Notes: a model not told the origin generated them from the letters alone. DNA of 55,139 nucleotides from Candidatus Sericytochromatia bacterium (GCA_036676985.1 JAKFBU010000051.1:1-55139); one strand, 5' to 3'. Shown: positions 2,246 through 30,858, numbered from the stretch's first letter. Numbers and translations: made by a program.

Positions 2246-5200
2246 TTACTTAGAGATCTTGCTGAGGACCTGCACGACCATGTGCATGCGGTTCGACAGG
2301 GCCTCGTTGTTCTCGCGAAGGCCGTCCAGGGCCTCACGCAAGGCGGCGTTCTCCCGGGTGAGTGCCGAGACCGCCTCGGCCTGCTCGCTGCGAATCTGGC
2401 CCAGCTGCTCGCCGAGCATGCCCTCCGAGCGCGAGGCGGCGACCGTGCTCGCCTCGAGAGCCTGGGCCAGGAGCTGGCTCTGCTCGGCCAGTTGCTGGAC
2501 GAACCGGGTCAGCTCCTCCACCTGGCTCTGGAGAGCCGTATCGGCAGACTTGGCCTCGAAGGCCTGCTGCAACGAGGTGATCTGCTGCACGGCGGCGTTG
2601 AGAGCCTCCTGTTGGCGCGCGTGCGCCAGGGACATGCCCTCGAGGCGCCCCTTGAGGCCGGCGAATTCGGTTGCGACGCCCTTGAGCTCGCCCTGCGTCC
2701 GCGCTTGCTCCGAGACCTTGCCTGTCAGGTCGGTCAGCGTCGCGTCGATCGCCTTGCCATGGTCCTCCAGCTTCTCGGTCCGCCGGTCGAGCGTCTCGAA
2801 TCGGCGATCCAGCGCCTCATGGCGCCCTTGCAGCTCCGAGATGTTGCCCTGGGTATCGGCCACCCGGTTATCCACCCGCTGGCTCAGCGAGCCGATGTCG
2901 CTTCGGGTCTCCTCGAGGGCTTCGGACACCCGCTCGATTTCGTCACCCAGCCCGAAGAGGCGCTCGTTGGCCTCCTCCAGGGCGTCGGCCTGCTCCAGGA
3001 CCCGGGCGTTGGCCGCTTCCACGCGCTCATCGATCGAACGGCGGGCGATGTCGAGGTCCGCGAAGCGCTCGTCCATCCGCTTGCCCAGGTCGAGCAGGCG
3101 CCCTTCCAGGGCCGAGAGGCCTTCGAAACGCTCGGCATGGGCGTCGAGCCGATAGGAGATCTGTTCGACCGCGCCGGAGAGATCCCGCAGGGCCTCGAGC
3201 TCCTGCCGCAGGGGCGGTAGCGCCTCCTGCACGAGCGCCTGCAGCTCCGTGAGGCGCCCGTCGGTGCCCTGGTGCTGGTCGCCGACGCGCGATTCGAGGG
3301 CCTCGAGCGAGGTCCCGAGCTGCCGGGTGCGGTCGGCGATCGCCGCCATCTCCGCTCCGAGCTCCGTCTGGGCCTCGGCCACCACGCGCTGCAACTTGGT
3401 GGCCTGGTCAGCGAGCTCGGCAGCGAGCGCCTGACGGGCCTCCGCCAGTTCGCCGACCAGCTGGTCGTTGCGCTCTGCCTGGGCCGTGAGGGCCGTCTGC
3501 CACTGGCTGCGCGAATCCGCTTCCCGGGCGTCGAGCTCGGAGAGCAAGGTGCGCGCGGCCTGCAGGACGCCGTCCAGGCGCGTGAACTCTTCGTTCATGA
3601 GGGTGCCGAGCGCATCGAGGTCCGACTTGAGGGAGTCGGCCCCCGACGCCAGCTCGCCCTTGAGGCCGCTCAGGTCCGCGGCGTAGTCGTTCTTGAGCCC
3701 CTCCAGCCCCGAGCGGAGCTCGGAGCGAATCTCTGCGTCGCCCGCGGCGAGGTCGGCCTTCAGGCCCTCGACGCCGGTCGCCAGTTCGCCCTTCAAGCCT
3801 GCGACGTCTGACGAGAGTCGTTCGCCGAGCAGCTCGCGCGCCTTGGTTTCGGCGTCGAGGGCGGCCTGCAGGGCCGATTGAGCGTCGGAGAGATCCTTGG
3901 CGAGTTGCGCGTCCTGGCCGCTGCGGACCGTGTTTTCGCTCTCGAGCCCCGTGGCGAGGTCGCCGAGGCCCTTGGCCAGTCGCTTGCCCTGTTCCTCGCG
4001 GGCTTCCTGCTCCGCGGTGAGGGCATGGCGCAGATCGGCCAGCTGGTCCTCGACCGTGTGCCGGAACTCCGCTTGCACTTCCTGCTGGTCGGCGAGGCCG
4101 CCGCGCGCCTCGTCGATGCGCGCCAAGAGCGACGCCTGCACGTCGCTCCATGCGGAGCGGGCGTCTTCGAGCCGCTGCTCGGCCAGGTTCACGATCGACC
4201 CCAGCTCGGAGATGCTCGTGGTGGTCGACTCCTGGACCCGGCGCACTTCGTCGCGGACCCAGGTGCGCTGGCCGGAGAGCCGCTCTTCGGTGTGGCTCCA
4301 GACCTCGCGCAGGTTGCGGATCTGCTCGGTGCGCAGGAAGTCGACGTCGCCCGCGATGGCGGCCGGCAGCTTGCTGGGCACCTCGGCCGCGAAGGTGGCG
4401 AGGCTGGTCTCGCTCGAGGCGGGCAGGGACTCGCCGAGGGGCATGCGGCGGTCGAAGCGATCGCGCAGCGGTGCCGTCACCGTCTTGAAGGCGTTCTCGC
4501 CGAAGGCGATGGGACCGTCCTCGAGGCCCGGCCAGCGCTGCTTCCAGCCGACGATCGCAAGTCCGAAGAGCAGGGCCGCACCCGCCAGCGGGTAGAGGAG
4601 GATGCCCTTGGGGAGGCCCGGGGCCTGCAGGGGGCCGCTGGCGACCATGGTGGGCCCCGCGAGCGTTCCGGGATCGAGGCTCAGGAGCGGGTTGGTGTGC
4701 CCGATGGGATGGCGCACGACCACGGCCCACCCGGTGGACGGCACGCGCGCCACCGAGAACATGGCATCCGAGGTCGCAAGGAACCCTTCGCCCAGCTGGA
4801 GCAGCTGCTGGCACCAGTCGCGGTCCTCGCCGCTGGGCGCGACCTCACCTTCGAGGGGCTTTCCGCTGGCATCCAGCAGGTAGCGTCGGACGCCGTTGGG
4901 ACGGGGGAGGGCGTTCAGGCCCTGGGAGAAGTAGTGAAAAGGCACGCGCGAGGCGAGCACCTGGCCCGTGCGGCTCGGGACGGCGATGAGCACGGACTTG
5001 AGGGGGCTTCGCTCGGCGATCCACACGCCCTGCTTCTGGATGGCGGTGACGTCCTCGGGACTGAGGTAGCGCTCGCCGGGGGGCTGGACGCTGAAGTCCG
5101 ATCCCTTGCCGGGGGTGGCCGTGAAGAGGGCGACGGGCCACTGGCTCGAGGCCGCGTTGAGGCCGATGCGCTCGCGCTCGAAGACCGTGAGGTCGGCGTC

Positions 5201-5425
5201 GGCGATGGTCTGTAGCAAGGAGGAGCTGCGCCGCAGGGCCTCGTCGATGCGGTTGGCGATCGCCTGGGCTTCCTGCTGGACGGCCCGGTCGGGCTGGCGG
5301 GCCGCGCCGTAGTCGTTGCGGGCCATCATGGCGCCGGTCTGGGCCTCGGAGGGGATCACCAGCGCGATCGTCCCGGCGAGCGCGATCCCCAAGAGTCCCA
5401 ATCCCCACCAGCGTCGGTTCTGCAC
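2246..5425 (-). CDS. Membrane protein: TM, periplasmic Cache-like region, TM, then a ~700 aa cytoplasmic coiled coil
   Basis: GTG start with GGAGG RBS. Hydrophobic segments near aa 7-25 and aa 275-293. RRYLLDASGK and ARVPSTGWAVVVRHP resemble a Cache domain. The remainder is heptad-rich (A/E/L/R). Confidence 0.75.
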   Translation of the reverse strand: MQNRRWWGLGLLGIALAGTIALVIPSEAQTGAMMARNDYGAARQPDRAVQQEAQAIANRIDEALRRSSSLLQTIADADLTVFERERIGLNAASSQWPVALFTATPGKGSDFSVQPPGERYLSPEDVTAIQKQGVWIAERSPLKSVLIAVPSRTGQVLASRVPFHYFSQGLNALPRPNGVRRYLLDASGKPLEGEVAPSGEDRDWCQQLLQLGEGFLATSDAMFSVARVPSTGWAVVVRHPIGHTNPLLSLDPGTLAGPTMVASGPLQAPGLPKGILLYPLAGAALLFGLAIVGWKQRWPGLEDGPIAFGENAFKTVTAPLRDRFDRRMPLGESLPASSETSLATFAAEVPSKLPAAIAGDVDFLRTEQIRNLREVWSHTEERLSGQRTWVRDEVRRVQESTTTSISELGSIVNLAEQRLEDARSAWSDVQASLLARIDEARGGLADQQEVQAEFRHTVEDQLADLRHALTAEQEAREEQGKRLAKGLGDLATGLESENTVRSGQDAQLAKDLSDAQSALQAALDAETKARELLGERLSSDVAGLKGELATGVEGLKADLAAGDAEIRSELRSGLEGLKNDYAADLSGLKGELASGADSLKSDLDALGTLMNEEFTRLDGVLQAARTLLSELDAREADSRSQWQTALTAQAERNDQLVGELAEARQALAAELADQATKLQRVVAEAQTELGAEMAAIADRTRQLGTSLEALESRVGDQHQGTDGRLTELQALVQEALPPLRQELEALRDLSGAVEQISYRLDAHAERFEGLSALEGRLLDLGKRMDERFADLDIARRSIDERVEAANARVLEQADALEEANERLFGLGDEIERVSEALEETRSDIGSLSQRVDNRVADTQGNISELQGRHEALDRRFETLDRRTEKLEDHGKAIDATLTDLTGKVSEQARTQGELKGVATEFAGLKGRLEGMSLAHARQQEALNAAVQQITSLQQAFEAKSADTALQSQVEELTRFVQQLAEQSQLLAQALEASTVAASRSEGMLGEQLGQIRSEQAEAVSALTRENAALREALDGLRENNEALSNRMHMVVQVLSKISK

Positions 5426-5719: not shown

Positions 5720-8440
5720 ATGAAGGCAGTGACGCCTTTCATGGCCATCGTCGCCGCGGCCCTCATGGGGTTGAGCGGCTGCTTTTGGGCTCCGAACACT
5801 CCCTCCACGACGGGAACCCCCGGGCTCGGCACGGCACAGGTGCAGGCCAACCAGCCGGAAGGGGCCCTGCCGCTGCAAGGGGTCGTCGATTTCGGCACGC
5901 GCGGGATCCAGGCCGGCATCGGAGAAGTGGCCAACGGCGCGACCGTCTCCTTGATCGAGGTCTCCACCGGCAACACGATCGCCACGACCCTGACCTCCCC
6001 CACGGGCGTCTTCAGCTTCACCTTCGGCCGCTTCCGCCCCGCCAACGACACGCCCTATTACCTGGAAGCCGTCAAGGGCCTCTACGCGAACAACCCGAGC
6101 TACGATGCCGTGCGCCTGCGGACCATCCTCAGCTACAACAGCGGCTGGCGCTCCATCACCTCGGCGCAAACCAACGGGCTGGTGGCCATCTCGGCGGAGA
6201 CGACGGCGATCTGCGTCATCGCCGCCTACCGGCCGACCCAGGTCACAGCCCTGAGCCTGATCGGCACCGTGACGCCGGGCGTTCCCGACAACAGCCTCAA
6301 CCCGCCGACCGGCAGCACCTTCGTGCCGGGGACCACCAACATCACGAACGCGGACTTCCACACCGTCGCGGACCTGGTCAACCAGGCCATGACCCAGGAC
6401 ACCGACCCCTTCTTCCGCGTCCGCTACAACCCCGCCTTCAACCTCTACTCGCTCTCGAGCGAGGTCATCACGGGCGGCGGCTCGGGCGGGTCGGGAGGGT
6501 CCGGCGGCTCGGGCTCCGGCGGCTCCGGCTGGGGCGGCCCCAACTTCCCGCAGATCCAGGGCCTGAGCACCTACGTGGGCGGCCCCGGCACGACGCTGAC
6601 GGTCTACGGCATCAACTTCGGCCCGAACGTCGCCGACAACTCGGCGGACCTGGACGGCATGGCGGCCACGGTGACGGAGGCCTCGCCCACCCGTTTGACG
6701 ATCACCCTGCCCGCAGGGGCCACCTCGGGTCTCTTGACGGTCACCACCGCCCTCGGTACCAGCAACGGCCTCATCTTCACCATCTTCGAGCCCATCGTCG
6801 GCACCCACGAGCCGGTGCGCGCGCCGACCCTGACGAGCGTGAGCCCGGTCGCCGCCATGCCGGGCGCCACCGTCTCCATCGACGGCGCGTGGTTCGATCC
6901 CTCGGCGGGCGCCAACTGGGTCGTGATGAACGGGCGCATGGCCTCGGCCTCGACGGCCACCAACGCGCGCCTGACCTTCCGGATCCCGGCCGACTGGACC
7001 AGCGGCAACTTCCAGGTCATCCGCGGCGGCTCGCCGAGCAATGCCCTCTACCTGGCCATCGGCGCCCCGGTGGTGGTGGGGTCGGATCTCCCGTCGGTCG
7101 TGCCCGGGGGCACGGTCCGCCTGCGCGGGCTCAACTTCGTGCCGACCCCCTCGGGCAATACCGTCAACTTCGTGGGGGGCCCGGGCATCGTCACGGCGGC
7201 CTCGGGCGACGAGCTCACGGTCATCGTTCCGGGCAACGCCCAGCCGGGGCCGGTGACGGTCCAGACGGCGGCCGGCATCAGCGCCAACTTCGCCCTGGGC
7301 ATCCTGTCCGGGACCGCGGGTCAGCTGCAGCTCCAGAATCCCCCGACCGTAACGGCCATGAGCCCGAACCGCGGGCCGGTGGGCCTGGGGGTGAGCCTGA
7401 CGGGGACCGGCTTCAGCTCATGGCTGCCCGGCAACGTCGTGCGGTTCAACGGCGTGATGGCCACGGTCCTGTCGGCCGCGACGGACAGCCTGTCGGTGGT
7501 GGTCCCCTCCGGGGCGACCACGGGCCCCGTGACGGTGCATACCGCCTCGGGCAAGGCCACGGCCGGCACCTTCACCGTCTACGGACCGGACGTCTCCTCG
7601 ACGACCGTGTCGGGCTTGCCGTTCTTGGACTCCGTCTCCCCGGCCATCGCCATCGTCGGCGAGACGGTCACGCTCGCGGGCTCCAACTTCGACCCGATCG
7701 TCGGCAACAACGTGGTGAGCTTCAACGGCACGAACGCCACGCCCGTGGACGGGACGTCGGTGATGCTGCGCGTGCTCGTCCCGGTCGGGGCCACGAGCGG
7801 CAACCTGACGGTCACGCACTCCGGCGGGACGAGCACGGCGCAGACGTTCCACGTGATCCCGGCCAACAGCGGCCAGCTGACGCTGACCAACCCCCCGACC
7901 GTCACGACCGTCACGCCGGTCAACGCGCGGGTGGGGGCGACCGTCACCATCACGGGGCTCAACTTCTGGGACAACCTCTCGGCCAACGCCGTGCACTTCA
8001 ACGGCGTGAGCGCGACCATCACGGCGGCCTCGTCGACGAGCCTGACCTGCACGGTACCCGCGGGCGCGACCACCGGACTGCTGCGCGTCTCGTCGCCGAC
8101 CGGTCGGACCTTCTGGGCCACCTTCACCGTGGACCCGGAGCCACCCGGCGCGATCGTCCTGCCCGGGGCCCCGACGATCTCGGTCCTGGGGCCCAACGCG
8201 GCTCCGCGGGGCGCCACCCTCACCATCTCGGGGAGCAACTTCCATCCCCAGGCCGATCAGAACGCGGTTTCTTTCAACGGCACGGCCGCCACCCCGACGG
8301 CCGGAGACACGGGGACGCTGACGGTGACGGTGCCTGCGGGCGCCACATCGGGCAACGTCACCGTCACGACCTCGGCCGGCACGAGCAACACGCTGCCGTT
8401 TACCGTCATTTCCAACGTAGGAGGCACCTTTAACCCGTAG
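5720..8440 (+). CDS. Lipoprotein A: conserved N-domain, Gly/Ser linker, 7 IPT/TIG domains, C-terminal tail SNVGGTFNP
   Basis: Lipobox LSGC. Seven ~80 aa units of the form P-x-I...G..V.I.G.NF...N.V.FNG....V...S...L...VP.GA.SG.V.V.T. Confidence 0.88.
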   Translation: MKAVTPFMAIVAAALMGLSGCFWAPNTPSTTGTPGLGTAQVQANQPEGALPLQGVVDFGTRGIQAGIGEVANGATVSLIEVSTGNTIATTLTSPTGVFSFTFGRFRPANDTPYYLEAVKGLYANNPSYDAVRLRTILSYNSGWRSITSAQTNGLVAISAETTAICVIAAYRPTQVTALSLIGTVTPGVPDNSLNPPTGSTFVPGTTNITNADFHTVADLVNQAMTQDTDPFFRVRYNPAFNLYSLSSEVITGGGSGGSGGSGGSGSGGSGWGGPNFPQIQGLSTYVGGPGTTLTVYGINFGPNVADNSADLDGMAATVTEASPTRLTITLPAGATSGLLTVTTALGTSNGLIFTIFEPIVGTHEPVRAPTLTSVSPVAAMPGATVSIDGAWFDPSAGANWVVMNGRMASASTATNARLTFRIPADWTSGNFQVIRGGSPSNALYLAIGAPVVVGSDLPSVVPGGTVRLRGLNFVPTPSGNTVNFVGGPGIVTAASGDELTVIVPGNAQPGPVTVQTAAGISANFALGILSGTAGQLQLQNPPTVTAMSPNRGPVGLGVSLTGTGFSSWLPGNVVRFNGVMATVLSAATDSLSVVVPSGATTGPVTVHTASGKATAGTFTVYGPDVSSTTVSGLPFLDSVSPAIAIVGETVTLAGSNFDPIVGNNVVSFNGTNATPVDGTSVMLRVLVPVGATSGNLTVTHSGGTSTAQTFHVIPANSGQLTLTNPPTVTTVTPVNARVGATVTITGLNFWDNLSANAVHFNGVSATITAASSTSLTCTVPAGATTGLLRVSSPTGRTFWATFTVDPEPPGAIVLPGAPTISVLGPNAAPRGATLTISGSNFHPQADQNAVSFNGTAATPTAGDTGTLTVTVPAGATSGNVTVTTSAGTSNTLPFTVISNVGGTFNP
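6473..6538 (+). repeat. Gly/Ser low-complexity linker (GGS)n inside lipoprotein A
   Basis: Encodes GGGSGGSGGSGGSGSGGSGWGG with mixed synonymous codons. Confidence 0.85.
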
Positions 8441-8465
8441 CGGTGAGAGGTAGGAGGACACGAAC

Positions 8466-9911
8466 ATGCCGAAACACTCTTGGTTGATATTGGCGCTGCT
8501 GGTCGCCCTGGTGGGCTGCCAGACGGCCGCTCCTCCCTCGATCCGATCGGGAGACGCCACTCCCGCGCAGGGTCAGGCCGTGTCGTCGGTGCCGCCCCTG
8601 TCGGGCGTGCTCCAGCCGCCCGACCGCTCGACCCAGGCCTTGCCGAGCGACGTCATCAACGCGGCGACCGTCACGCTGATCGACCCCTCGTCGAACGTGG
8701 CCGTGACGACGGCCATGACCAACGCCACTGGTAACTTCACCCTCCAGTTCTCGGGCGGCTTCACGGCGTCTTTGGGCAGCATCTACGTCCTCGAGGCCTT
8801 CAAGGGCCTGGCGAACAACTCGCCCGGCTACTACGCGCCGCGCTTCCGCACCATCGTGCAGCTGGGCGCCGGGGGCTGGACCTCCATCACGGGCAGCACC
8901 ATCTACATCAACGCGCTGACCACGGCGATCGCCATCACGGACGCCTTCGACGGCACCATGACCGCCGGCAACACCATCGAGAAGGTCACGCCGCCCGCCA
9001 CGCTGCTCAGCAACGCCTTCCAGGCGGTGGGCACCGGCCACCCCGACTCCGAGGTCTACCAGCTCTCGAGTGACATCAGCAACTACCTGACCAACAACAT
9101 CGACCCGGTGCTGAGCGTGTCGTCGATCGCTCCCACCATCACCTCCTTCTCGCCCACCTCGGGCGGTGCGGGCACGGTGGTCACGGTCTACGGCACGGGC
9201 TTCAACGCTTCGCCCGGCAGCACGACCGTCACCTTCAACGGCGTGGCCGCCAACGTCATCTACGTGGCGCCGCGCCTCGACACGCCGGGCCAGAGCCGGC
9301 TCGCGGTCGTGGCCCCCGGGGCCTTCACCACCGGCAAGATCCGGGTCTCGACGCCCATCGGCACCGTGCTGAGCGTCGCGGACTTCACGACCAACGTCCC
9401 GACCATCTCGAGCCTGAGCGTGGCGACGGGCTCGGTCGGCACCACCGTCACCCTCACGGGCACCAACTTCGACCTCAACGCCAGCAACGACATCGTGCGC
9501 TTCAACGGGGTGCTCGCCCCGGTCACCGCGGCCTCGGCCACCAGCCTGACAGTGGCGGTGCCCGCGGGGGCGACCACGGGCAACGTGGTGGTCACCACCA
9601 ACGCCGGCGCCAGCAACGGCCTCGCCTTTGCGGTCTATCCCAACATCGTCTCGATGAACCGCACCTCGGGACCCATCGGCGGCACGGTCGTCCTGACGGG
9701 CACCAACTTCGACGGAGTGGTCATGGCCAACAACCTGGTCCGCTTCAACGGCATCCTGGCCACCGTGACGGCGGCCACGTCCACCTCCATCACCTGCTCG
9801 GTGCCCGCCGGAGCGGCCACCGGCCCTGTGACCGTCACCATCGGCGGCAACACCAGCACCGCTATCACCTTCTACGTCGTGCCGACCCTGGGCGGCACCG
9901 GCACGCTGTAA
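8466..9911 (+). CDS. Lipoprotein B: conserved N-domain, 3 IPT/TIG domains, tail PTLGGTGTL
   Basis: RBS AGGAGG, lipobox LVGC. N-domain motifs ATVTLID, LEAFKGL, RFRT, GWTSIT. Three IPT repeats. Confidence 0.88.
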   Translation: MPKHSWLILALLVALVGCQTAAPPSIRSGDATPAQGQAVSSVPPLSGVLQPPDRSTQALPSDVINAATVTLIDPSSNVAVTTAMTNATGNFTLQFSGGFTASLGSIYVLEAFKGLANNSPGYYAPRFRTIVQLGAGGWTSITGSTIYINALTTAIAITDAFDGTMTAGNTIEKVTPPATLLSNAFQAVGTGHPDSEVYQLSSDISNYLTNNIDPVLSVSSIAPTITSFSPTSGGAGTVVTVYGTGFNASPGSTTVTFNGVAANVIYVAPRLDTPGQSRLAVVAPGAFTTGKIRVSTPIGTVLSVADFTTNVPTISSLSVATGSVGTTVTLTGTNFDLNASNDIVRFNGVLAPVTAASATSLTVAVPAGATTGNVVVTTNAGASNGLAFAVYPNIVSMNRTSGPIGGTVVLTGTNFDGVVMANNLVRFNGILATVTAATSTSITCSVPAGAATGPVTVTIGGNTSTAITFYVVPTLGGTGTL

Positions 9912-9922
9912 GCGAGGTTCCA

Positions 9923-12817
9923 ATGAAGAGTCAGAGTTTCAAGACATCCGTGGCACTGGCCCTGGTCGGGGTCCTGGCCGGCTGCGTGCCGAGCCTGTGG
10001 TCGAAGCCGACAGGCGGAGACCAGCTTCCGACCCTCAGCCGCCAGGGCGGCGTGCAGGTCACCCAGGACGGCGACACCACCACCCTCCAGCGTCTGGACA
10101 CCATCCTGGTGGGACAGGTCTCGCTCGGAGACGGCGATCGCCAGGTCCAGGCCTCGTTGGGGGACGTGGTCAACAACGCGTCCGTCGCCCTGATCGATCC
10201 GGCCTCCAACGTCACGGTCGCCACCTCGGTCACCGACGGCTCGGGCAACTTCTCGATCCCGTTGCCCACCAGCTGGAACCCCGCCCAGGGCAGCAACTTC
10301 GTGCTCGAGGCCTTCAAGGGCCTCGGCAGCAACGCGGCCGGTCAGAACGTGGTCCGGCTGCGGACCATGGTCCAGAAGCTCGCGGGCCAGGGTAACTTCA
10401 CGAGCATCACGGGCACGGACTCCATCGGCGTCAACCCGATGACGACGGCCGTCTACCTCAAGTCGCTCGCGGGCTTCGGCACCGTGCCCATCGCCAACAC
10501 CTTCTATGGCGACAACAAGGGCACGGTCAACAACCTGGGCAACCTGCGCCAGGCCAACCAGTTCACCACCTGGAGCGTCACCGACGCCCAGCTGACCAAC
10601 CTGCGCACCCTCATCACCGACACGGTGACGGGCAACTACGACCCGGTGGCCGCCGCCAACTCGGCGTTGCAGCCGGTGGTCGACAACTTCAGCACCTACA
10701 CGGCTCCGGTGGGCTCGCTGGTGTCGATCAACGGCTCGGGCTTCAACCCGGTCCCGTCGGGCAACACCGTGACCTTCAACCCGGGCGTGACGGCGTCCAT
10801 CCTCTACGGCAGCAAGAGCCAGCTGGTCGTGGCGGTGCCCGCCGGGGCCACCTCTGGCAACGTGACGGTCCAGACCTCGACGGGCACGAGCGCGCCCACC
10901 AACTTCACGGTCTCGGCACCGGTCGGCAGCGCCACGGGCGCTCCGGTCGTCGCCAACATCGACAACGCCACGCCCGCTCCGGGCAACACGCTCCAGATCG
11001 GCGGCGTGAACTTCGTCAACGGCGTCAACACCGTCACCTTCTCGGCCGGTGGCGGCACAACGGTCAACGGCAGCGGCACCTACGTCAACGCCAACCAGCT
11101 CACGGTGACGGTGCCGGCCTCGGCCAAGAGCGGTCCGCTCACGGTCACCAACTCCAACGGCACCAGCAACGGCTACTGGGTCGAGATCATCCACGGCTCG
11201 GGCACGCTGGTCGAGACCTTCGCGGACAGCAGCCGCAACGACACCACGGCCACCAACCTCGGCCAGTGGGTGGGCGGCATCTCCCCGGTCGGCGCCGGCA
11301 CCACGCTCGGATCGACCATCGCGGACTTCGACGCCATGACGGGCGTCAACGTCCAGCGGGTCTACGACAACGGCAACCCGAACTATCCGGCTTCGGTCCA
11401 GCTCGCCATCACCGAAACCTATCCGCACACCAACGGTCAGGTCTTGCCGACGGACCTTTACCAGACCGTCTCCACGGGCTACCTGGTCGCGACCAACGGT
11501 CGCCAGATCTACTTCGGCAACACCACGCCCACCATGATGCTCATGTCGACGGGCTTCGACGGCATGTCGTTCGGCTTCCGCAATCCGGCGCCCACCATCA
11601 CGGGGTTCGGGGCGACCGCCAACTACAAGATGGTGGGCTTGGTCGGAGCGAACAACTACTTCTACCTGGACGAGACCACTCCCTCGTTCTTCGGCCTCAG
11701 CTACCAGAACCTCTCGAATCCCTTCGCCCCCACGGGCGGTTCCACGGCCTTCTACGCCCAGGACGGCACGAGCGCGCTTGGTCTGTACAAGAACGCGTCG
11801 GCCACCAACGGCTCCAAGATCGGGTCGGACGGTACCTACATCTACGTCCTGTCCGGTCAGGGCTACGTCGCGGGCGTACCGACCTACACCCAGGCCTGGA
11901 ACCTCTACAAGTTCCGGCCGGACTCCTACCTCAACCCGACCAAGCTCATCCTGGCAGAGCCGCCCTTCCAGAACATCACGCTGCCGGGCACCAACTACGT
12001 CAATACGCAGTACACGGGCCTCATGGTCGATCGCCGGGCCTTCTACCTGTCGGGCTACGCCTCGGGCGGCAGCGTCGACTCGATGACGCCCTACTCGCTG
12101 CGGACCGGCGCCAGCAAGAACCTGACGGTGCGCTTCCGCAACGGGGACGGCAACTACGCGAACGTCACCTGGGACCCCTTGAACGACGTCTACTACGCGG
12201 TGAACCACAGCAACACCAACTGGTACCGCAACTACATCGCCTCCAAGGCCTACGAGACGACGGGCACGATCACCACCGGCGTCCAGACGCTGCCGGCGGG
12301 TCAGGCCTGGTCGCAGGTGGGCATGGTGGTGGACTCGCTGCCGGCAGGCGCCAACGTCACCTTCGACGTGCTCGACGCGGCGGGCACCCCGCTGGGCGCC
12401 TACCGCAACCTGACGCCGGGGGCGAGCCTCCGGAACCTGGCCACCACCAACATCCGGATCCGGGTCAATCTGTCGGGCAACGGGTCGGTGACCCCGGTGG
12501 TCCGGGCCATCAACCTCCTGACCATCCCGACCAGTCCCATCGCCCGTTCGACGGCCATCCAGATCCCGGGGGCCGATGCGAACGACCGGATCATCATCGA
12601 CTCGGTGCAGTACACCCACACGCTGAACGGCGGCACCATCACCTACCAGTACGCCGACAGCGCGGACAACACGGCCTATTCGTCGTTCCAGAACAGCTTC
12701 ACGTCGGTCAGCCGTCGCTACCTCAAGTGGCAGGTCGTGCCGACGGTGGCGACCGCGACCGAGTCCGCAATGGTTCCGCCGATCGTCCGGCGGGTCCAGA
12801 TCAACTACCACTACTAA
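9923..12817 (+). CDS. Lipoprotein C: conserved N-domain, 2 IPT/TIG domains, large beta-rich (propeller/jelly-roll-like) putative adhesin region
   Basis: Lipobox LAGC, N-domain motifs, two IPT units, Tyr/Thr/Asn-rich C-terminal half ending RRVQINYHY. Confidence 0.85.
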   Translation: MKSQSFKTSVALALVGVLAGCVPSLWSKPTGGDQLPTLSRQGGVQVTQDGDTTTLQRLDTILVGQVSLGDGDRQVQASLGDVVNNASVALIDPASNVTVATSVTDGSGNFSIPLPTSWNPAQGSNFVLEAFKGLGSNAAGQNVVRLRTMVQKLAGQGNFTSITGTDSIGVNPMTTAVYLKSLAGFGTVPIANTFYGDNKGTVNNLGNLRQANQFTTWSVTDAQLTNLRTLITDTVTGNYDPVAAANSALQPVVDNFSTYTAPVGSLVSINGSGFNPVPSGNTVTFNPGVTASILYGSKSQLVVAVPAGATSGNVTVQTSTGTSAPTNFTVSAPVGSATGAPVVANIDNATPAPGNTLQIGGVNFVNGVNTVTFSAGGGTTVNGSGTYVNANQLTVTVPASAKSGPLTVTNSNGTSNGYWVEIIHGSGTLVETFADSSRNDTTATNLGQWVGGISPVGAGTTLGSTIADFDAMTGVNVQRVYDNGNPNYPASVQLAITETYPHTNGQVLPTDLYQTVSTGYLVATNGRQIYFGNTTPTMMLMSTGFDGMSFGFRNPAPTITGFGATANYKMVGLVGANNYFYLDETTPSFFGLSYQNLSNPFAPTGGSTAFYAQDGTSALGLYKNASATNGSKIGSDGTYIYVLSGQGYVAGVPTYTQAWNLYKFRPDSYLNPTKLILAEPPFQNITLPGTNYVNTQYTGLMVDRRAFYLSGYASGGSVDSMTPYSLRTGASKNLTVRFRNGDGNYANVTWDPLNDVYYAVNHSNTNWYRNYIASKAYETTGTITTGVQTLPAGQAWSQVGMVVDSLPAGANVTFDVLDAAGTPLGAYRNLTPGASLRNLATTNIRIRVNLSGNGSVTPVVRAINLLTIPTSPIARSTAIQIPGADANDRIIIDSVQYTHTLNGGTITYQYADSADNTAYSSFQNSFTSVSRRYLKWQVVPTVATATESAMVPPIVRRVQINYHY

Positions 12818-12830
12818 GGGGGTGGACACC

Positions 12831-15656
12831 ATGTGGAAACAGCGCATCTTGACAGTCATGGTGGCCCTCGCCGCCATCACGGCCGGCTGTAAGCCGCCGG
12901 CCGCCCTGGCCCCCCTCGGCGGCACCCAGCCCGACGCCGAGCCGACGAGCGTCGGCGCCACCCGGCAGACGCTCGGCGATCCGCGCGTCCTTTCGGGGGT
13001 GATCGCGTTCCCCGGCGAGCGCCAGACCCAGGCGACCGCCGCCGACGTGGTGAACGCCGCGACGCTGCAGCTCATCGATCCGACCACCAACATGACGGTG
13101 ATCGGCGGGGTGATGAGCAACGGCGGGAGCGGCACCCAGACCTTCTCGCTGGCCATCCCCCTCACCTTCCAACCCTCGACCGGACAGGTGTTCATGCTCG
13201 AGGCCATCAAGGGCCTGAACAACACCCGTCCGGGCAACGAGGCGGTCCGCCTGCGCACGTTCGTCCAGTGGACCGCCGGCGGCTGGACCAGCACCACGGG
13301 CAGCTCGACCATCGCCATCACGGCGATGACGACCGCCGTGTCGCTCATCAGCAGCATCGATCCTGGTAACGTCCCGCCGGCCCAGACCATCGGAGACGTG
13401 ACCTACAACCTCGGCACCAGCACCTTCACCGGCTCGCTGCCGGGACACACGGGCGCCGAGGTCACCAACCTCACGCGCTCGGTCAATGACTACATCGCCG
13501 GCAACGTGGACCCGGTCGCCAACACCAGCCGTCTGACCCCTCAGGTCACGGGCCTGTCGGTGGCGCGCGGGGCCGTGGGCGACGTGGTCGCCGTCTACGG
13601 CGACGGCTTCAGCCCCATCACCGGGGCCGCGACCGTCAGCTTCAACGGCGCCAACGTCGGGACCTACGTGGTCCGGAGCCGAACGGCCATGTACGTGGTC
13701 GTCCCGACCGGCGCCACCACGGGCAACGTCACGGTGACGACCCTGGGCGGCACCAGCAACGGCCTCCCCTTCACGGTCTCGACCCCCGGCGCCACCACCA
13801 TCAGCCCCGTGGTCACGGGCCTGAGTCGGACGGTCGTGCGCCGCGGAGATACGCTCACGCTGACGGGCTACAACTTCGACGGCAACTACAGCCTCAACAC
13901 CGTCACGCTGAACGGCAGCATCGATCTGCCGGTAATCAACGGGTCGCCATCCTTCCTGACGGTCACCATCCCGAACAACGCCGTGAGCGGCGCCATCCGG
14001 GTCACCAACGTCAATGGCCCGAGCGGCGCCTGGTACCTGGGGGTCCTCACCTCGACCACCCAATCGATCGTCGAGGAGTTTACCAACGCGGCGACCAAGG
14101 ATACGGCCATCACCACGCTCGACTGGTCCACGACCGGCACGCTGGGATACCCGGCGCTCGTCGATTGGAAGCAGCAGGGGGCGGACTTCTCGGCCGTCAC
14201 CACGGCCGGCGCCACGATGGACACCTTCGTGAACACCTGGCCCAAGGGAGGCGGCGTCGGCATCCGGCGGTCGGTCGCCAACACGAGCTTCATCCAGACG
14301 GGTGATACCTATCCCTACGGTTTGCCGACGAATGGCGGCGGCATGGCCACCAACGGCGACATCCTGGTCGGCATCGAATCCAACGTGCTATACGCCACCA
14401 AGATCAAGAATCTCCGCGACATCAGCAACGAGTGGACCACCCAGACTCTCGGCTATCCCTTCGCCAACGTCAGTAACAGCGCCTACCTCGGGATGGCGGG
14501 GCTGCAGGGCAGCGACGTCTTCTACTACGTCAACGGCTACGGCCAGGCGTCGATCAACAGCCTGAAGCGATTCCGGATCAACGACTACGGCGTCGCCCGC
14601 ATGGCGGACATCACGTTGCCCATCACGATCAACCGGTACTCGACCTACAGCTACGGCTTCCGGATCGGATCGGACGGGACCTACATCCTCATCTGGGCGG
14701 GCCAGGGGACCGGCTACTCGACCTCGAGCAGCTACTTCTATCGCTTCGCGATGAACGGCGACACGGCGACGCTGATCGAGGCGCGACCCGTGAGCCCCTC
14801 GTACTGGCCGCAGGATACCAGCACCTACCACTACCTCTCGGGCGACGACATGCACTACCACATGACGGGCTTCGACGGGACGTATCCGCGGACTCAGATG
14901 TTGAACCTGACCGGCAGCGTCTACACGACCGGGTTCAACCTGCCCTTCCGCGGCAGCAGCTTCTACTACTACAACTACCTGGTCTACGACGCGAAGAACG
15001 ACTGCTACTGGGCCACCAACCCGAGCCAAGTCGGCAGCTACGTGATGCGCCTGGTGCGCACAGGGGCCTACGCAACGACCCAGGGCATCAACTCGGTCAC
15101 CTCGCCGGCCATCGCCCTTCCTGCGGGACAGGTCTGGGATCAGCTGGCGGTCACGGGCGAGGAGGCGCCGCAAACGGCCATCAAGTTCGAGGTCCTGAAC
15201 GGCACGACCAACGCCGTGCTGTACACGTCGCCGGACATGCCGTCGGGCACGATCAACCAGACGCTGAACGTGCGCTCGGCGCTCGCAGGCTACACCGGGT
15301 CCGTCAAGCTGCGCGCCTGGCTGGATACGACCACCGCGAACAACACCCCGTACCTGACCAGCTGGCGGATCACCTCGGCCTGGGGTAGCCAGCCCCTGGC
15401 CCAGTCCAACGCCTACGACACCCGGGTCACCTCGGGCGCGGTCAACTACCAGTCGTTCACCGTTGATCAGCCGGCTGGTGCTCCCGCCATCACGGTCATG
15501 TTCTCGGACAGCCCGGACGGCAACACCTGGAGCGCCTGGACGCCCAACCTCACGTCGCTGAGCAAGCGCTACGTGCGGTGGCAGATCACTCCGTCGGTCG
15601 CCAGCGCTTATAGTGGGCAATTGGCGGAACGGTTACAGATCGACTACCAGTACTAA
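12831..15656 (+). CDS. Lipoprotein D: paralog of C (N-domain, 2 IPT/TIG domains, beta-rich putative adhesin region)
   Basis: ATG at 12831 preferred over GTG 12822 on RBS spacing. Lipobox TAGC. Shares IGSDGTYI, LPAGQ.W, DS.D, and S.RY..WQ with C. Ends ERLQIDYQY. Confidence 0.85.
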   Translation: MWKQRILTVMVALAAITAGCKPPAALAPLGGTQPDAEPTSVGATRQTLGDPRVLSGVIAFPGERQTQATAADVVNAATLQLIDPTTNMTVIGGVMSNGGSGTQTFSLAIPLTFQPSTGQVFMLEAIKGLNNTRPGNEAVRLRTFVQWTAGGWTSTTGSSTIAITAMTTAVSLISSIDPGNVPPAQTIGDVTYNLGTSTFTGSLPGHTGAEVTNLTRSVNDYIAGNVDPVANTSRLTPQVTGLSVARGAVGDVVAVYGDGFSPITGAATVSFNGANVGTYVVRSRTAMYVVVPTGATTGNVTVTTLGGTSNGLPFTVSTPGATTISPVVTGLSRTVVRRGDTLTLTGYNFDGNYSLNTVTLNGSIDLPVINGSPSFLTVTIPNNAVSGAIRVTNVNGPSGAWYLGVLTSTTQSIVEEFTNAATKDTAITTLDWSTTGTLGYPALVDWKQQGADFSAVTTAGATMDTFVNTWPKGGGVGIRRSVANTSFIQTGDTYPYGLPTNGGGMATNGDILVGIESNVLYATKIKNLRDISNEWTTQTLGYPFANVSNSAYLGMAGLQGSDVFYYVNGYGQASINSLKRFRINDYGVARMADITLPITINRYSTYSYGFRIGSDGTYILIWAGQGTGYSTSSSYFYRFAMNGDTATLIEARPVSPSYWPQDTSTYHYLSGDDMHYHMTGFDGTYPRTQMLNLTGSVYTTGFNLPFRGSSFYYYNYLVYDAKNDCYWATNPSQVGSYVMRLVRTGAYATTQGINSVTSPAIALPAGQVWDQLAVTGEEAPQTAIKFEVLNGTTNAVLYTSPDMPSGTINQTLNVRSALAGYTGSVKLRAWLDTTTANNTPYLTSWRITSAWGSQPLAQSNAYDTRVTSGAVNYQSFTVDQPAGAPAITVMFSDSPDGNTWSAWTPNLTSLSKRYVRWQITPSVASAYSGQLAERLQIDYQY

Positions 15657-15660
15657 AGGC

Positions 15661-15702
15661 CAGGAAGGGCGGGGCTGGGGCAACCCGGTCCCGCCCTTCT
15701 TG
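15661..15702 (+). terminator. Intra-operon GC-rich hairpin with GCAA tetraloop (partial terminator or mRNA stabiliser)
   Basis: CAGGAAGGGCGGGGCTGGG-GCAA-CCCGGTCCCGCCCTTCTTG between genes D and E; weak U-tract. Confidence 0.65.
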
Positions 15703-15713
15703 CGGGTGATCCC

Positions 15714-16325
15714 ATGCGTATCGTTCTCATCGGACTCTTGCTATTGACCGTCGGCTGCACGCCGACCAGCGGACCTGCCGTGACGGGTCCGGACGGCGCC
15801 GTTCTGCCCCAGGGCGAGCCCAAGGTCACCCACCTGGACCGTTCGGCCTTCCGGCCGGGCGAGAAGGTGACGCTCTTCGGACAAGGCTTCGACCCGACGC
15901 CGGCCAATAACCGGGTCGAGTTCGTGGGCGCCGAGGCCGTGCCCTCTCTTTCCAACCAGCAGAGCATGCTGGTCACGGTGCCCATGGAGGCGCGTTCGGG
16001 AGCACTGCGCGTGCTCGTCCGAGGGCTGAGCATCGGCCTCCTGTCCTACGAGGTGGATCCCCCCGAGATCGCCACCATCAGCCATGCGGCGACCTCTGCC
16101 GGCAACCAGTTGACCCTCCGGGGCCGCCACTTCGCGCCGGTGCTGAACGAGAACCGCATCTCGTTCAACGGCACGGAGGTGCTGCCCCTGGCGGGAGGCA
16201 ACGGGGTGCTCCTGGTCCCCGTCCAGGGGACCAGCGGCCCCCTGACCGTCCGCACCGGTGCGGGGACGAGCGCCCCGATCGAGTTCGTCGTGATCCCCCA
16301 GCTGGGGGGCAACTTCAATCCCTAA
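15714..16325 (+). CDS. Lipoprotein E: 2 IPT/TIG domains and tail PQLGGNFNP, no N-domain
   Basis: Lipobox TVGC. IPT units begin right after a short linker. Confidence 0.85.
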   Translation: MRIVLIGLLLLTVGCTPTSGPAVTGPDGAVLPQGEPKVTHLDRSAFRPGEKVTLFGQGFDPTPANNRVEFVGAEAVPSLSNQQSMLVTVPMEARSGALRVLVRGLSIGLLSYEVDPPEIATISHAATSAGNQLTLRGRHFAPVLNENRISFNGTEVLPLAGGNGVLLVPVQGTSGPLTVRTGAGTSAPIEFVVIPQLGGNFNP

Positions 16326-16344
16326 CCCTGCGAAAGGAGCAGTC

Positions 16345-17505
16345 ATGGCTTGGCGTCAGCGGTATCGCGCGAGTTTGGTCCTCAGTCTCTTTGCGCTGAG
16401 CTTGCTCGGCTGCGCGGGGGAAGAAGATGGCCTTGGCATCGTGGGCAAGCCCAAGGCCTCGACGGCACCGGCCAATGGGTCGGTGACGGGCGGTGATCCG
16501 AACAACGGCCAGAATACCGGGGCCTCGCCAACCCCGTCTCCGTCGCCCTCGCCAAAGGGCCCGGTCCTGCCCGCGGGCTTCGAGGTCAACTCGGACTTCA
16601 GCACCGGCTCGGTGCCCATCGTCCGGCCCCAGGCCATCGGGATCAGTGTGACGGGGGACGTCTGGGTGGCCTCGGCCCCCATGGACAGCCGTGACCTCAA
16701 CAAGCCCTACCTGATGACGGTGATGAACGGCTTCGGGAACGTCAAGGCGACGGCCTCTCTCGCCATCCTGCCCAAGGCGATCGCCTTCTACAAGCCGACG
16801 GGCGCTTCGGCCCTGACCTTCTTCACGGAAGGTCGGAACCTCGTCACCATGGACGCGAGCCTCAGCGTCGTCGCCGAGGTCGAGTACAACACGGGCAGCC
16901 CGAGCACGCTCTCCTCCGCCCTGAGCGTCACCTATCCCGGGCGGCCAGGTCTCGTCAAGGCGATCGCCACTCCCAATCAGGTGACGATCTATCCGATGGA
17001 CTACCCCGCTTCCGGAACGCCGGACGAGCGGGACTTCCCCGGTAGCGTGGCGGCCCTGGCGTGCGGCTATTACGGCAATACTTGGGCGGCCGGGTCCCAG
17101 AAGCTCGTCAAGCTGCCCCCGACCGCCGGCGGCACGCCCATCGAGACCTCGGTGACGGATCTCGGCACCCTGAAGAGCGTGGCCGTGCATTCCAACGAGG
17201 ACGTGTGGGTGCTCGGCACCGAAAAGCTCGCCCTCTACGGCACCGACGGCGTCCGGAAGGCCGGCCCCTTCAACTACGGGGGCGATCAGGTCCTCTTGAG
17301 GACCGGCAACAAGCCCGTGGTCGTGAACTACGAGACGGGCACGATCACCCGCCTGAACACGGACGGCACCCCCGACACGACGGGCCAGACGGGGATGTCC
17401 GCGGTGACGCTGCCGGGCGGCTTGAACGGCGCGGCGCTGGATACCAACGGCAACCTCTGGGTGTCCAGCAAGACCCAGGACTACGTCGCGAAAACGCGCT
17501 TCTAG
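16345..17505 (+). CDS. Lipoprotein F with beta-propeller (NHL/Vgb-like) domain
   Basis: RBS AAAGGAG, lipobox LLGC, Pro/Ser linker. Blade motifs GISVTGDVWVA, AVHSNEDVWVL, ALDTNGNLWVS. Confidence 0.8.
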   Translation: MAWRQRYRASLVLSLFALSLLGCAGEEDGLGIVGKPKASTAPANGSVTGGDPNNGQNTGASPTPSPSPSPKGPVLPAGFEVNSDFSTGSVPIVRPQAIGISVTGDVWVASAPMDSRDLNKPYLMTVMNGFGNVKATASLAILPKAIAFYKPTGASALTFFTEGRNLVTMDASLSVVAEVEYNTGSPSTLSSALSVTYPGRPGLVKAIATPNQVTIYPMDYPASGTPDERDFPGSVAALACGYYGNTWAAGSQKLVKLPPTAGGTPIETSVTDLGTLKSVAVHSNEDVWVLGTEKLALYGTDGVRKAGPFNYGGDQVLLRTGNKPVVVNYETGTITRLNTDGTPDTTGQTGMSAVTLPGGLNGAALDTNGNLWVSSKTQDYVAKTRF

Positions 17506-17512
17506 TCCAGAC

Positions 17513-17547
17513 GCGAACGGCCCCCGGCACTGCCGGGGGCCGTTCGC
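17513..17547. terminator. Perfect 17-bp inverted repeat between convergent genes (bidirectional terminator)
   Basis: GCGAACGGCCCCCGGCA-C-TGCCGGGGGCCGTTCGC. Confidence 0.8.
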
Positions 17548-18797
17548 TAGCTGGGGTCGATGGCGCTGACGGACGGGCGGCTCGCCTTGGTCAGGAGCTG
17601 CACGATGGTTCCCACGCGCGTGCTCAGGACCGCCAGATCGTCCTTGAGCGCCAAGAGGTGGCGCTCGTGCTCGAGGTTCTCGTTGCGCTGCAGCCCGAGG
17701 GCCTTGGCCACCTTGGCCTCGAACTCCTTGAAGTGGGCCTGGGTCTGCGCGAGGCTGCTGTGCCAGGCCGAGGTCGAGCTCTGGAGCTGGTCGAGCAGCG
17801 CCTCGAATTGCTCGCGCATGGCCCCTGCCATCTGCTCTTCGGCCTGGATGGAGCCGGCTTGGACCGACTCGAGCGCCTGGGCGAGCATGGCCCCCTGGGC
17901 CGCCAGCTGGCTCACGAGCTGGTTCAGGGTCTCCCGCTCGCGCTCGCCCTGCTCGCGCAGCGTGCGCAGGGCCACGTCCAGGGCATGCGTCGCCTCCGCC
18001 TGGCTGGCCAGTCGCGCCGAGAGGGCCGTGTCGAGCGATTGAAGGCGAGCGGCCTCCTCGCCCTGACGCCGGGCGAGCTCCTGGACGCGAGCGGCCTCCT
18101 CGTCCATGCGAGCGCCGATCGTCTTCTCGAGCCCCTCGTGGCGGCTCGCGAGCGTCGCGCGCTCGTCGTCCAGCTGCTCGCGCATGGCGGCAAGCTGCTC
18201 GCGCGAGGTGGCGTCCAGCTCGTCGCGGCGCTCCTGGTAGGTCGCGATCGCGTCCTTCAGCTCGATGATGCCGTCCGCGTGCCCCTCGGCGGCTTCCAGG
18301 GCCTCGGCGAGCCCCTCGGTGAGCTGGTCCCGGGCTTCCGAGAGGCCTTCGGTCAGAACCTCGTACTGCTTGGAGAGCGTCCGATCGAACTCGGCGAGCG
18401 TCTTCTCGAAGACGCCGACGCGGTCGGCGATGTCGTCGAATACCTCGTCCGTGGTCTGACTCAGGCCCTTGAGCTCGGCCTTGAGGTCGCCCAGGGCGTC
18501 CACTTGTCGATCTTGACCCTGCTCCAGACGATCGAGGCGGTCGGAGAGGGTCTGGAGCCGGGCCGTGAGGTCCCGGACGTCGCCTTGGAGCTGTTCCTCG
18601 ATCTCGATGGCGATGGTTTCCAGCTCGTCCTGGCGGACCTGCATGGCGTTCTGGCGCTCCAGGAGGTGCTCGATCTCGGCCGACTGCGCCTCCATGGCGC
18701 GGCGCCATTCGAGCCGCTCCTGCTTCTGCTCGAACGCCAAGTTGCTAAGGTCGGAGCTGAGCCGCTCCATGGCCCTGGCGAAGTCTTCTGGATCCAT
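17547..18797 (-). CDS. Soluble all-coiled-coil protein (~416 aa)
   Basis: Start taken at MDPEDF (18797). Continuous heptad A/E/L/Q/R pattern with no signal peptide or TM segment. Confidence 0.75.
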   Translation of the reverse strand: MDPEDFARAMERLSSDLSNLAFEQKQERLEWRRAMEAQSAEIEHLLERQNAMQVRQDELETIAIEIEEQLQGDVRDLTARLQTLSDRLDRLEQGQDRQVDALGDLKAELKGLSQTTDEVFDDIADRVGVFEKTLAEFDRTLSKQYEVLTEGLSEARDQLTEGLAEALEAAEGHADGIIELKDAIATYQERRDELDATSREQLAAMREQLDDERATLASRHEGLEKTIGARMDEEAARVQELARRQGEEAARLQSLDTALSARLASQAEATHALDVALRTLREQGERERETLNQLVSQLAAQGAMLAQALESVQAGSIQAEEQMAGAMREQFEALLDQLQSSTSAWHSSLAQTQAHFKEFEAKVAKALGLQRNENLEHERHLLALKDDLAVLSTRVGTIVQLLTKASRPSVSAIDPS

Positions 18798-18948
18798 CCT
18801 GGCGTCACCCCGGTCTACCCGCACGCGCCGAAACGCCGGCTTCTTGCCATGTACCCGACGGCCCGCTTTCTCTATTGACTGGAAATGAACGATCCTCGGC
18901 CGGCCCTATGCGTGAGGCCCAACATCGGGGATACTTATAGGAAATCGG

Positions 18949-30754: not shown

Positions 30755-30776
30755 CGACTTCTCCACAGAACGCAAA

Positions 30777-30805
30777 TCCGGCCCCCGCCGGGGACGGGGG
30801 CCGGA
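30777..30805 (-). terminator. Hairpin between hemJ and the Omp85-like gene
   Basis: TCCGGCCCCCG-N7-CGGGGGCCGGA, followed by TTT on the minus strand. Confidence 0.6.
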
Positions 30806-30811
30806 ACCAAT

Positions 30812-30836: not shown

Positions 30837-30858
30837 GTTTTCGAGCCGTCCCACCAAC

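Follow-up and report, generated by a model that had tools for sequence, protein, structure and literature searches.

Type V pili, with their FimA or Mfa1 stalk, FimB or Mfa2 anchor and tip pilins, are made from lipoprotein precursors and are described, in the available part of the source, as unique to Bacteroidia (PMC13655056). The current analysis deals with six genes, referred to as A to F, which also encode lipoproteins and are situated on a 55,139-nucleotide stretch of DNA from Candidatus Sericytochromatia bacterium (GCA_036676985.1 JAKFBU010000051.1:1-55139); the whole of this stretch is called the window. Sericytochromatia are non-photosynthetic sisters of the cyanobacteria and are known mostly from metagenomes. 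The products of A to D have a common N-terminal domain, designated here as the N-domain, and those of A, B and E end in a short tail that follows a series of IPT domains. The observation is real in that both the N-domain family and the tail motif stand well above chance. It is plausible, though unproven, that A to F assemble head-to-tail by a strand complementation like that of the type V pili, and on the basis of sequence patterns and structural models we rate the chance of such an assembly as slightly short of even.

The N-domain family and its predicted fold

The N-terminal regions of A to D are about 185-190 residues long, and the others are 36-44% identical to that of B. A domain common to the four proteins had been predicted from the sequence; its presence was borne out and its length is greater than the approximately 170 residues first given. 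All four copies have the segments L-x-G, R-x-x-Q-A, LEAxKGL and RxRT without variation. No Pfam or NCBIfam model matches the domain above its cut-off. CarboxypepD_reg (PF13620) attains 15.9-21.5 bits in three of the four N-domains and nothing in D, as against a cut-off of 32.3, a likeness which is at the level of the fold only.

A profile made from the four copies detects 627 representative clusters at E <= 1e-3 and 544 at E <= 1e-10 among 1.84 billion representatives. The N-domain is near the N-terminus in every one of the 150 matches listed, and the lengths of the proteins are bimodal, with 49 of the 150 examined having 300-350 residues (N-domain, one IPT domain and tail) and most others 600-1300. 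A strict lipobox precedes the first strand of the domain in 130 of 151 family representatives, the median spacer being 24 residues; the representatives failing the strict pattern (21/151) are mostly truncated or near-matches. A scan of species-representative genomes yielded 25 loci with 55 N-domain open reading frames (ORFs), carrying the titles Candidatus Sericytochromatia (9), Candidatus Tanganyikabacteria (1), Cyanobacteria bacterium (3), 'bacterium' (7) and Stenomitos sp. (5), and all five Stenomitos loci come from one metagenome-assembled genome. Among 301 genomes sampled from the phylum the domain is encoded in 28, all of the window's class: beyond the window's own genome, 27 of 46 members of the class have it, as against 0 of 254 genomes elsewhere. 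The genome to which the window belongs (G000; 4.68 Mb, completeness 100%) encodes 45 ORFs with the domain, grouped in 19 clusters. The N-domains constitute an undescribed family restricted to the class. Its glycine G47 (B numbering) is invariant in 49 of 49 aligned N-domains. The invariance claimed for R-x-x-Q-A holds among A to D and fails across the family, in which the loop residues occur at frequencies of 72% (R), 84% (Q) and 91% (A).

The AlphaFold2 (AF2) model of residues 19-228 of B, obtained with 105 aligned sequences, has a mean predicted local distance difference test score (pLDDT) of 89.5 and a predicted template modelling score of 0.85, and comprises eight strands followed by three helices. 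A Foldseek comparison of this model with the PDB gave no match at E <= 0.001, the best being 1.4e-3. The weak matches at the top of the list are to EMC7, transthyretins and CnaB-type domains of pilus adhesins (RrgA, SpaC, UafA), and the N-domain is therefore considered a transthyretin-like sandwich. A sequence search of the PDB with the N-domain profile returned Mfa3 (5nf4) only, at an E-value of 2.5 that is the level of chance. The L-x-G segment had been expected to belong to the sheet of the domain, and residues 45-49 of B are indeed a strand in both AF2 models, within a 10-residue block of pLDDT 94. In the model of full-length B (pLDDT 87.4) residues 55-57, which follow R54, are the sole stretch below 50, in contrast to the strong conservation of Q57 and A58.

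Complex model of the B tail with the opened N-domain

A single pair has been modelled as a complex, with residues 55-228 of B (cut after R54) as acceptor and residues 393-481 of B (last IPT domain and tail) as donor. The model has an interface score (ipSAE, interaction prediction score from aligned errors) of 0.64, with 0.60, 0.65 and 0.64 in the separate runs, and the best of 3 controls has 0.01. The ipSAE mark was reached by 58 of 80 solved complexes and by 2 of 110 mismatched pairs, counts that are only rough, the alignments being custom ones. Between runs at least 94% of the contacts are the same, and the partner has a pLDDT of at least 85. A memorised complex of a similar kind is unlikely to be the cause of this pass because the N-domain has no relative with a solved structure.

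Residues 472-481 of B form the interface with the truncated N-domain. In the contacts of lowest expected error L475-G479 run antiparallel to G89-L93 (beta4) and touch I146-I148 (beta8); L475 also contacts L71, V131 and W138. The expectation that a tail peptide would fill the groove of a truncated N-domain was thereby upheld, at the level of the model, for the B-B pair. Since the first strand alone was deleted and the tail comes to lie between two strands of one sheet, the tail is likely to be in the site of the first strand, and the B tail should take that position in an opened N-domain. In prealbumin-like folds this is also where the first strand is found, with the fourth strand on one side and the last on the other. 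The site matches that of the anchor strand beta1 of Mfa1, which is grouped with beta4 and beta7 in its description (PMC13655056). The complex model supports a binding of the tail by the N-domain and does not show it.

The C-terminal tails

The tails of A, B and E extend 8 residues past the envelope of the last IPT domain, and C and D are tail-less, with the C-termini ...INYHY and ...IDYQY. That C and D carry the N-domain but no tail, and E a tail but no N-domain, had been noticed in the original prediction and is confirmed from the sequence. The tail is also not the last strand of its own IPT domain: in the monomer model of B the last IPT strand spans residues 467-471 and is followed by coil at 472-481, in keeping with the limits of the IPT envelopes.

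A tail motif was defined as [LIVMFA]-[GSTDNAP]-G-x-[FLVIMYG] within the last 12 residues. It is present in 56 of 96 non-redundant short members of the N-domain family and in 8 of 137 long ones. The control sets gave 8/110 for IPT proteins without the N-domain, 229/1920 for shuffled tails, 215/2330 for internal 12-mers and 258/5986 for other ORFs of the genome. The motif is family-specific and far above chance. Its glycine is 4-5 residues from the end in 49 of 64 motif-positive tails, the final residues of the tails are variable across the family, and in some short members the motif follows a Pro-rich spacer, not an IPT domain.

Conservation of the tails in homologs, as had been predicted, is seen both in the orthologs of A, B and E and across the short family members. 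Orthologs P0002-P0007 of B are full-length with 62-89% identity, and P0008 has 59% over 94% of the query. The B tail reads L-[GST]-G-[TN]-G-T-L across the orthologs, with the exact form L-x-G-x-G-T-L in 6 of the 8 listed. P0002-P0007 retain L-x-G-x-G; P0007, alone among them, is without the final T-L and is altered and longer after the second G, and P0008 has a C-terminus unrelated to the B tail. Tails of the A type, [VI]-[GS]-G-[ST]-F-x-P, are kept in P0123-P0125 and in both copies of a related operon in another genus (G046, described below). In the orthologs of E (7 sequences, 47-70% identity) the tail is invariant at 5 of 8 positions as against 52 of 195 elsewhere, and it is the block with the highest share of invariant residues. 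The tails are thus of two types, GG-[TSN]-F-x-P in A and E and G-[TN]-G-T-L in B.

Proposed assembly and alternative explanations

In the proposed assembly the first strand of the N-domain, P-P-L-x-G-x-V-x-F, would be tethered to the lipidated cysteine by a spacer of about 24 residues; its release would most probably result from cleavage within the flexible R-x-x-Q-A loop. The 8-residue tail (hydrophobic-x-G-x-hydrophobic) of a second subunit would then replace the strand between beta4 and beta8. A and B, with N-domain and tail, could serve as acceptors and donors. C and D, which consist of the N-domain and a large beta-rich cargo, would be acceptors only and, being tail-less, would be placed distally; E, with its lipid, two IPT domains and a tail without an N-domain, would be a donor only and form the membrane base. 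Since A and E have a common type of tail and that of B is different, we infer the order C/D <- B <- A(n) <- E. In place of the scaffold role originally proposed for A, the tail types suggest the roles of stalk for A, adaptor for B and anchor or terminator for E.

This type V-like reading survived each of the in-silico refutation tests that were run, and it rests on one prediction with an engineered acceptor. A number of points weigh against it. The acceptor was opened by hand, so that the model may merely finish the fold with the nearest strand-like peptide, and the intact N-domain, a tail-less donor and the tails of A and E are outside the scope of the B-B model. Cleavage, polymerisation, polymer length, assembly order and surface exposure are matters that we infer, with no evidence for cleavage. 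No protease is encoded in the six-gene unit or recurs near the 19 N-domain clusters of the genome, the other genes of the window having been partly scanned. A search for Peptidase_C25 (Arg-gingipain) was empty, but its control was silent too. Peptidase_C11 (clostripain family) was rejected as a specific partner protease as it does not co-distribute with the N-domain: it occurs in 44 of 46 genomes of the class, every one of the 19 that lack the N-domain among them, and the 2 genomes that lack C11 both encode the domain. The arginine of the loop is not universal, R or K being found at Q-3 or Q-2 in 185 of 243 family members, and the invariant charged residues E110, K113, R126, R128 and D213 are not explained by a role as acceptor. 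Proteins like E are rare (6 clusters, the window's own included), and the second copy of the operon in G046 is without E. A motif-positive tail is found in only 5 of the 19 clusters of the genome, most N-domain loci having neither such a tail nor an E-like anchor; the N-domain must therefore also have a role that is independent of the tail.

The likeness of the tails to the first strand (the N-strand) is also limited. The two have in common flanking prolines and a core of the form hyd(-2)-x-G(0)-x-hyd(+2), where hyd is a hydrophobic residue, and beyond this core no likeness is found. With a position-specific scoring matrix (PSSM) built from 232 N-strands the median scores are 15.3 for N-strands, -2.9 for the C-termini of short members and -6.1 for shuffled tails; the tails score poorly, with A (-9.8) and E (-7.1) at background and B at 3.8. 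Nor does a tail resemble the N-strand of its own protein more than others (own mean -2.69, cross mean -2.52, permutation p 0.64). The mimicry of the first strand by 9-residue tails that was originally claimed is therefore retained for the core and given up for the wider sequence, and the tails have 8 residues. The neighbours of the first strand were sought by mutual information with average product correction over 221 non-redundant N-domains, which was uninformative because the first-strand columns are too conserved. In A the linkers between IPT domains (SGQLTL, AGQLQL, PGAIVL) are loosely tail-like, without a hydrophobic residue at -2, and the A tail could therefore be a remnant of such a linker.

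Many of these points would be expected if the proteins were independent monomeric envelope lipoproteins with a stable N-domain, a module common to a large set of paralogs, that never opens, the tail being a conserved end or linker remnant and the complex model an artefact of the strand deletion. The N-domain would then tether or present IPT stalks and propeller cargo; its invariant charged residues, which suggest a binding or salt-bridge site, might be the means of attaching it to a component of the envelope. The prevalence of N-domain clusters without a motif-positive tail, the weak PSSM likeness, the lack of covariation and the lack of an assembly gene or protease in the unit, or recurring near the clusters, agree with such monomers, and MAFFT places the tails of short members on an inter-IPT linker of B, as the tail-like linkers of A would also suggest. 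A functionless remnant, however, would not be expected to form a coil beyond the IPT fold, as the tail does, or to be, as in E, the block with the largest proportion of invariant positions. Tail-like linkers are also missing between the IPT domains of B and of E, and the frequency of the motif in short members is 8-fold that in other IPT proteins. In some members the motif is preceded by a Pro-rich spacer and not by an IPT domain, and the complex model is specific with respect to its 3 controls. We consider the monomeric explanation unlikely on balance, while giving it appreciable weight.

An explanation that we hold to be improbable is that the tail is a short linear motif read by a partner other than the N-domain, such as F, a surface-export or sorting machine of lipoproteins or a C-terminal processing protease. 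The fixed distance of the motif from the C-terminus and the presence of a tail in E, which has no N-domain, are compatible with this, as is the retention of F, with a peptide-binding propeller-like fold (a lead only), in both G046 copies, even where E is missing. The last residues are nevertheless not conserved, unlike those of most C-terminal sorting or PDZ signals, genes like F do not recur near the other N-domain clusters of the genome, and the tail fits the opened N-domain with low expected error. Membership of a known pilus pathway, be it chaperone-usher, sortase-dependent or true FimA/Mfa type V, is close to refuted. The organisation of the operon does resemble that of fim and mfa, and the N-domain has its weak fold matches to the CnaB-type pilus adhesins RrgA and SpaC, at E 0.016 or worse. 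But the usher PF00577 has 0 matches in G000 (the control gave a match in E. coli, and the search took in the usher without the PapD-like chaperone), P_gingi_FimA has none in the genome (its control rang in B. thetaiotaomicron), and no FimA/Mfa Pfam family is detected in A to F at E <= 0.01. An LPXTG motif with a membrane segment is found at none of the six C-termini, where the proteins finish in a beta strand or a short polar tail (the search did not extend to sortase genes), and the single match in the PDB sequence search, Mfa3, is non-significant. Judged by their sequences, A to F are not members of the FimA/Mfa family.

Coming back to strand exchange among A to F, a wider proposal is that Sericytochromatia possess an unrecognised class of surface fibre, convergent with type V pili, in which protease-triggered strand exchange would involve an undescribed acceptor domain, IPT shafts and an 8-residue donor tail, with dozens of loci per genome bearing different beta-propeller tips; this we regard as doubtful, though worth putting forward. 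If true, it would be a second, unrelated lipoprotein system in another phylum, with the logic of type V built from unrelated parts, and would imply more than one origin of protease-triggered strand exchange. A first handle on the cell surface of Sericytochromatia would be gained as well, 45 ORFs of this genome being in the family. A small sandwich and the short tail completing it could also be put to use as a tag pair for protein ligation. The N-domain would define a new domain family of 627 representative clusters outside the Pfam and NCBIfam cut-offs. If the idea of assembly is wrong, what is left is a lipoprotein family that is large, restricted to the class and marked by a conserved motif at the C-terminus.

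Organisation of the six-gene unit and its surroundings

The features of the unit are given in the table. The intergenic gaps are 25, 11, 4, 57 and 19 nucleotides, and the genes form one isolated co-directional unit because the flanking genes are on the opposite strand. In agreement with the original prediction of six co-oriented lipobox genes, all six ORFs (window 5720-17505) are on the plus strand and each signal peptide ends in a lipobox: LSGC in A, LVGC in B, LAGC in C, TAGC in D, TVGC in E and LLGC in F.

Table. Features of the A to F unit, in nucleotide positions of the window
Feature	Position	Strand	Description
Gene A	5720..8440	+	906-aa lipoprotein: N-domain, Gly/Ser linker, 7 IPT domains, tail
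N-domain of A	5864..6439	+	aa 49-240, from alignment of A-D
Tail of A	8414..8437	+	aa 899-906, NVGGTFNP; last IPT envelope stops at aa 898
Gene B	8466..9911	+	481-aa lipoprotein: N-domain, 3 IPT domains, tail
N-domain of B	8589..9131	+	aa 42-222; predicted transthyretin-like sandwich and helical subdomain (AF2 model)
First strand of B N-domain, candidate 'anchor strand'	8598..8612	+	L45-S-G47-V-L49; AF2 models
R54-S-T-Q-A58 loop of B, candidate processing site	8625..8639	+	follows first strand
Tail of B	9885..9908	+	aa 474-481, TLGGTGTL; after last IPT strand
Gene C	9923..12817	+	964-aa lipoprotein: N-domain, 2 IPT domains, beta-rich C-terminal region of ~540 aa; no tail
N-domain of C	10097..10672	+	aa 59-250, from alignment of A-D
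Gene D	12822..15656	+	944-aa lipoprotein, paralog of C; no tail
N-domain of D	12978..13541	+	aa 53-240, from alignment of A-D
Gene E	15714..16325	+	203-aa lipoprotein: 2 IPT domains, tail; no N-domain
Tail of E	16299..16322	+	aa 196-203, QLGGNFNP
Gene F	16345..17505	+	386-aa lipoprotein; no N-domain, no tail

IPT/TIG (PF01833) is the only Pfam domain detected in A to E, with 140.3 bits in A (E 2e-41), 98.4 in B, 34.1 in C, 22.4 in D and 34.3 in E at a gathering cut-off of 20.9; iterated searches give the IPT numbers of the table, with 2 also in D. The NCBIfam family CoaZ_rpt_PGGG (NF058597) matches A with 115.8 and B with 56.7 bits (cut-off 30). A reference to the tail in the 'PGGG' of this name was considered and rejected, as the best stretch in A stops at residue 896, before the tail. 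None of the six proteins reaches the cut-off of the Leptospira family LIC10067_lipo, A coming nearest with 165 as against 200 bits. In A a Gly/Ser linker of about 20 residues (GGGSGGSGG...; residues 247-266, window 6458-6517) joins the N-domain to the first IPT domain and is absent in B, C and D.

The C-terminal regions of C and D share 26% identity over 415 residues (E 6e-19). For that of C the atlas matches are propeller-like but weak, all below 0.9, and 2 orthologs were obtained by a word-based search. F has atlas feature matches of 0.92 to NHL/SBBP clusters, which are a lead only, and is probably a beta-propeller lipoprotein of the NHL/SBBP type. A scan for promoters and terminators gave 0 promoter-like and 3 terminator-like sites as against 5.9 expected, and is uninformative for this phylum.

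The unit is flanked by genes for long coiled-coil proteins of 1059 and 425 residues (window 2246-5425 and 17547-18824, both on the minus strand). Both show weak sub-threshold similarity to DUF1664, and the 1059-residue protein has in addition a sub-threshold apolipoprotein match. About 10 kb from the operon a 1069-residue ORF (window 27653-30862, minus strand) pairs PD40 (TolB-like) beta-propeller repeats with a barrel of the Omp85 superfamily, an unusual combination. Genes of Peptidase_C11 are encoded at four places in G000 (C23:210491-211603, C27:264925-265977, C26:276809-277606 and C73:156023-156874), and in genome G043 one such gene is about 4 kb from an N-domain cluster on contig C64. For the DNA of window 8466-16325 at least half of the sampled words are present in 4 metagenome runs from soil and groundwater; these belong to 2 studies, and the window may itself derive from one of them. 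One further study contains a third of the words. No RNA run is among the sequencing runs that match this part.

Related operons and other N-domain clusters

In G046 (loci L026/L027, C32:187000-216000) the operon is duplicated in tandem, as A-B-C-D-E-F followed by A-B-C-D-F. The proteins are 30-70% identical to those of the window, with 56, 70, 64, 59, 48 and 37% for A to F of the first copy. The tails are retained in these copies, and F follows E or D in both.

The clusters of the window's genome extend over contigs C1, C17, C23, C30, C41, C42, C50, C53, C55, C56, C63, C74, C75 and others. Their proteins also show other classes of C-terminus, namely NHL- or Kelch-like strands, G-L-x-x-P-x-[FL], ...E-V-L-P and G-P-W...T-V-T. 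Pairs of N-domain proteins of about 1100 residues end in G-L-x-x-P-x-[FL], proteins of 620-850 residues end in [RK]-L-x-x-h-x-h-E-h-h-P, and short N-domain proteins that end in G-P-W...T-V-T adjoin long ones with NHL-type ends.

The recurrent neighbours of the 19 clusters are further small lipoproteins only; no protease, usher or secretin recurs among them, nor do genes like F recur near the other clusters, the tail-bearing ones included. Small lipoproteins without the N-domain are found in or beside the clusters at C1_144849-145805, C74_7475-8665, C23_54928-55719, C55_21946-22713, C74_8494-9300, C1_148564-149187 and C56_72097-72630, and such proteins could be further components.

Comparison with known systems

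A literature search, exclusive of supplements, revealed no system of this kind in Sericytochromatia and no type V-like pili outside Bacteroidia. The families of IPT/TIG-repeat lipoproteins (PF01833, CoaZ_rpt_PGGG and the LIC10067 family) have the IPT domains of A to E in common with this locus and cover the shaft only, the N-domain and the tail being outside them.

In chaperone-usher pili the gap in an Ig-like sandwich is filled by a strand from the next subunit, as is proposed here. The donor strand of those pili is at the N-terminus, and their assembly requires an usher and a periplasmic chaperone; the subunits of the present locus differ also in being lipoproteins. Self-assembly of beta-sandwich subunits by donor strands without chaperone or usher is described, in the available parts of the sources, for archaeal cannulae, haloarchaeal tafi and archaeal threads. 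Those subunits are non-lipoproteins of unrelated taxa, for which the same parts report no IPT shafts.

The CnaB or prealbumin-like domains of Gram-positive pilins are of the same fold class as the predicted N-domain sandwich, going by the weak Foldseek matches. In split pairs of the CnaB type, such as SpyTag/SpyCatcher, a split strand can be re-added in trans. The present proteins differ from these in having no sortase signal and no conserved Lys/Asn pair, the residue at +3 of the tail varying among N, D, S, K, R and Q. A CnaB-like isopeptide bond between the tail and K113/E110 was considered and dropped, as the N/D position of the tail varies and neither K113 nor E110 is among the listed contacts.

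The closest likeness is to type V pili. In Bacteroidia many paralogous type V loci are present per genome, as are N-domain loci here. The spacing of the lipidated cysteine and the arginine of the loop is similar, with Cys20/Arg49 in Mfa1 and Cys19/Arg46 in FimA, as given in the part of the source at hand, and Cys18/R54 in B and Cys21/R61 in A. In that part the first, anchor strand of type V pilins lies in a transthyretin-like sheet with beta4 and a late strand, much as is likely in B (PMC13655056), and is replaced by a C-terminal donor strand, as is predicted here for the B tail. There are differences as well. The predicted subunit of this locus has one transthyretin-like domain with a helical subdomain and IPT domains, whereas type V pilins, so far as that account goes, have two transthyretin-like domains; the tail is a free coil of 8 residues, whereas the type V donor is described there as a self-complementing double strand. 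E, the anchor-like protein, is devoid of a pilin domain, no gingipain-type protease has been identified (the C25 control being silent), and the host is a relative of the cyanobacteria, outside Bacteroidia. E may nevertheless be likened to Mfa2 and FimB, which are presented in the same account as base or terminator of the type V pilus, and the architecture of the six proteins points to an operon composed, as in type V systems, of acceptor-only, acceptor-plus-donor and lipid-anchored donor components.

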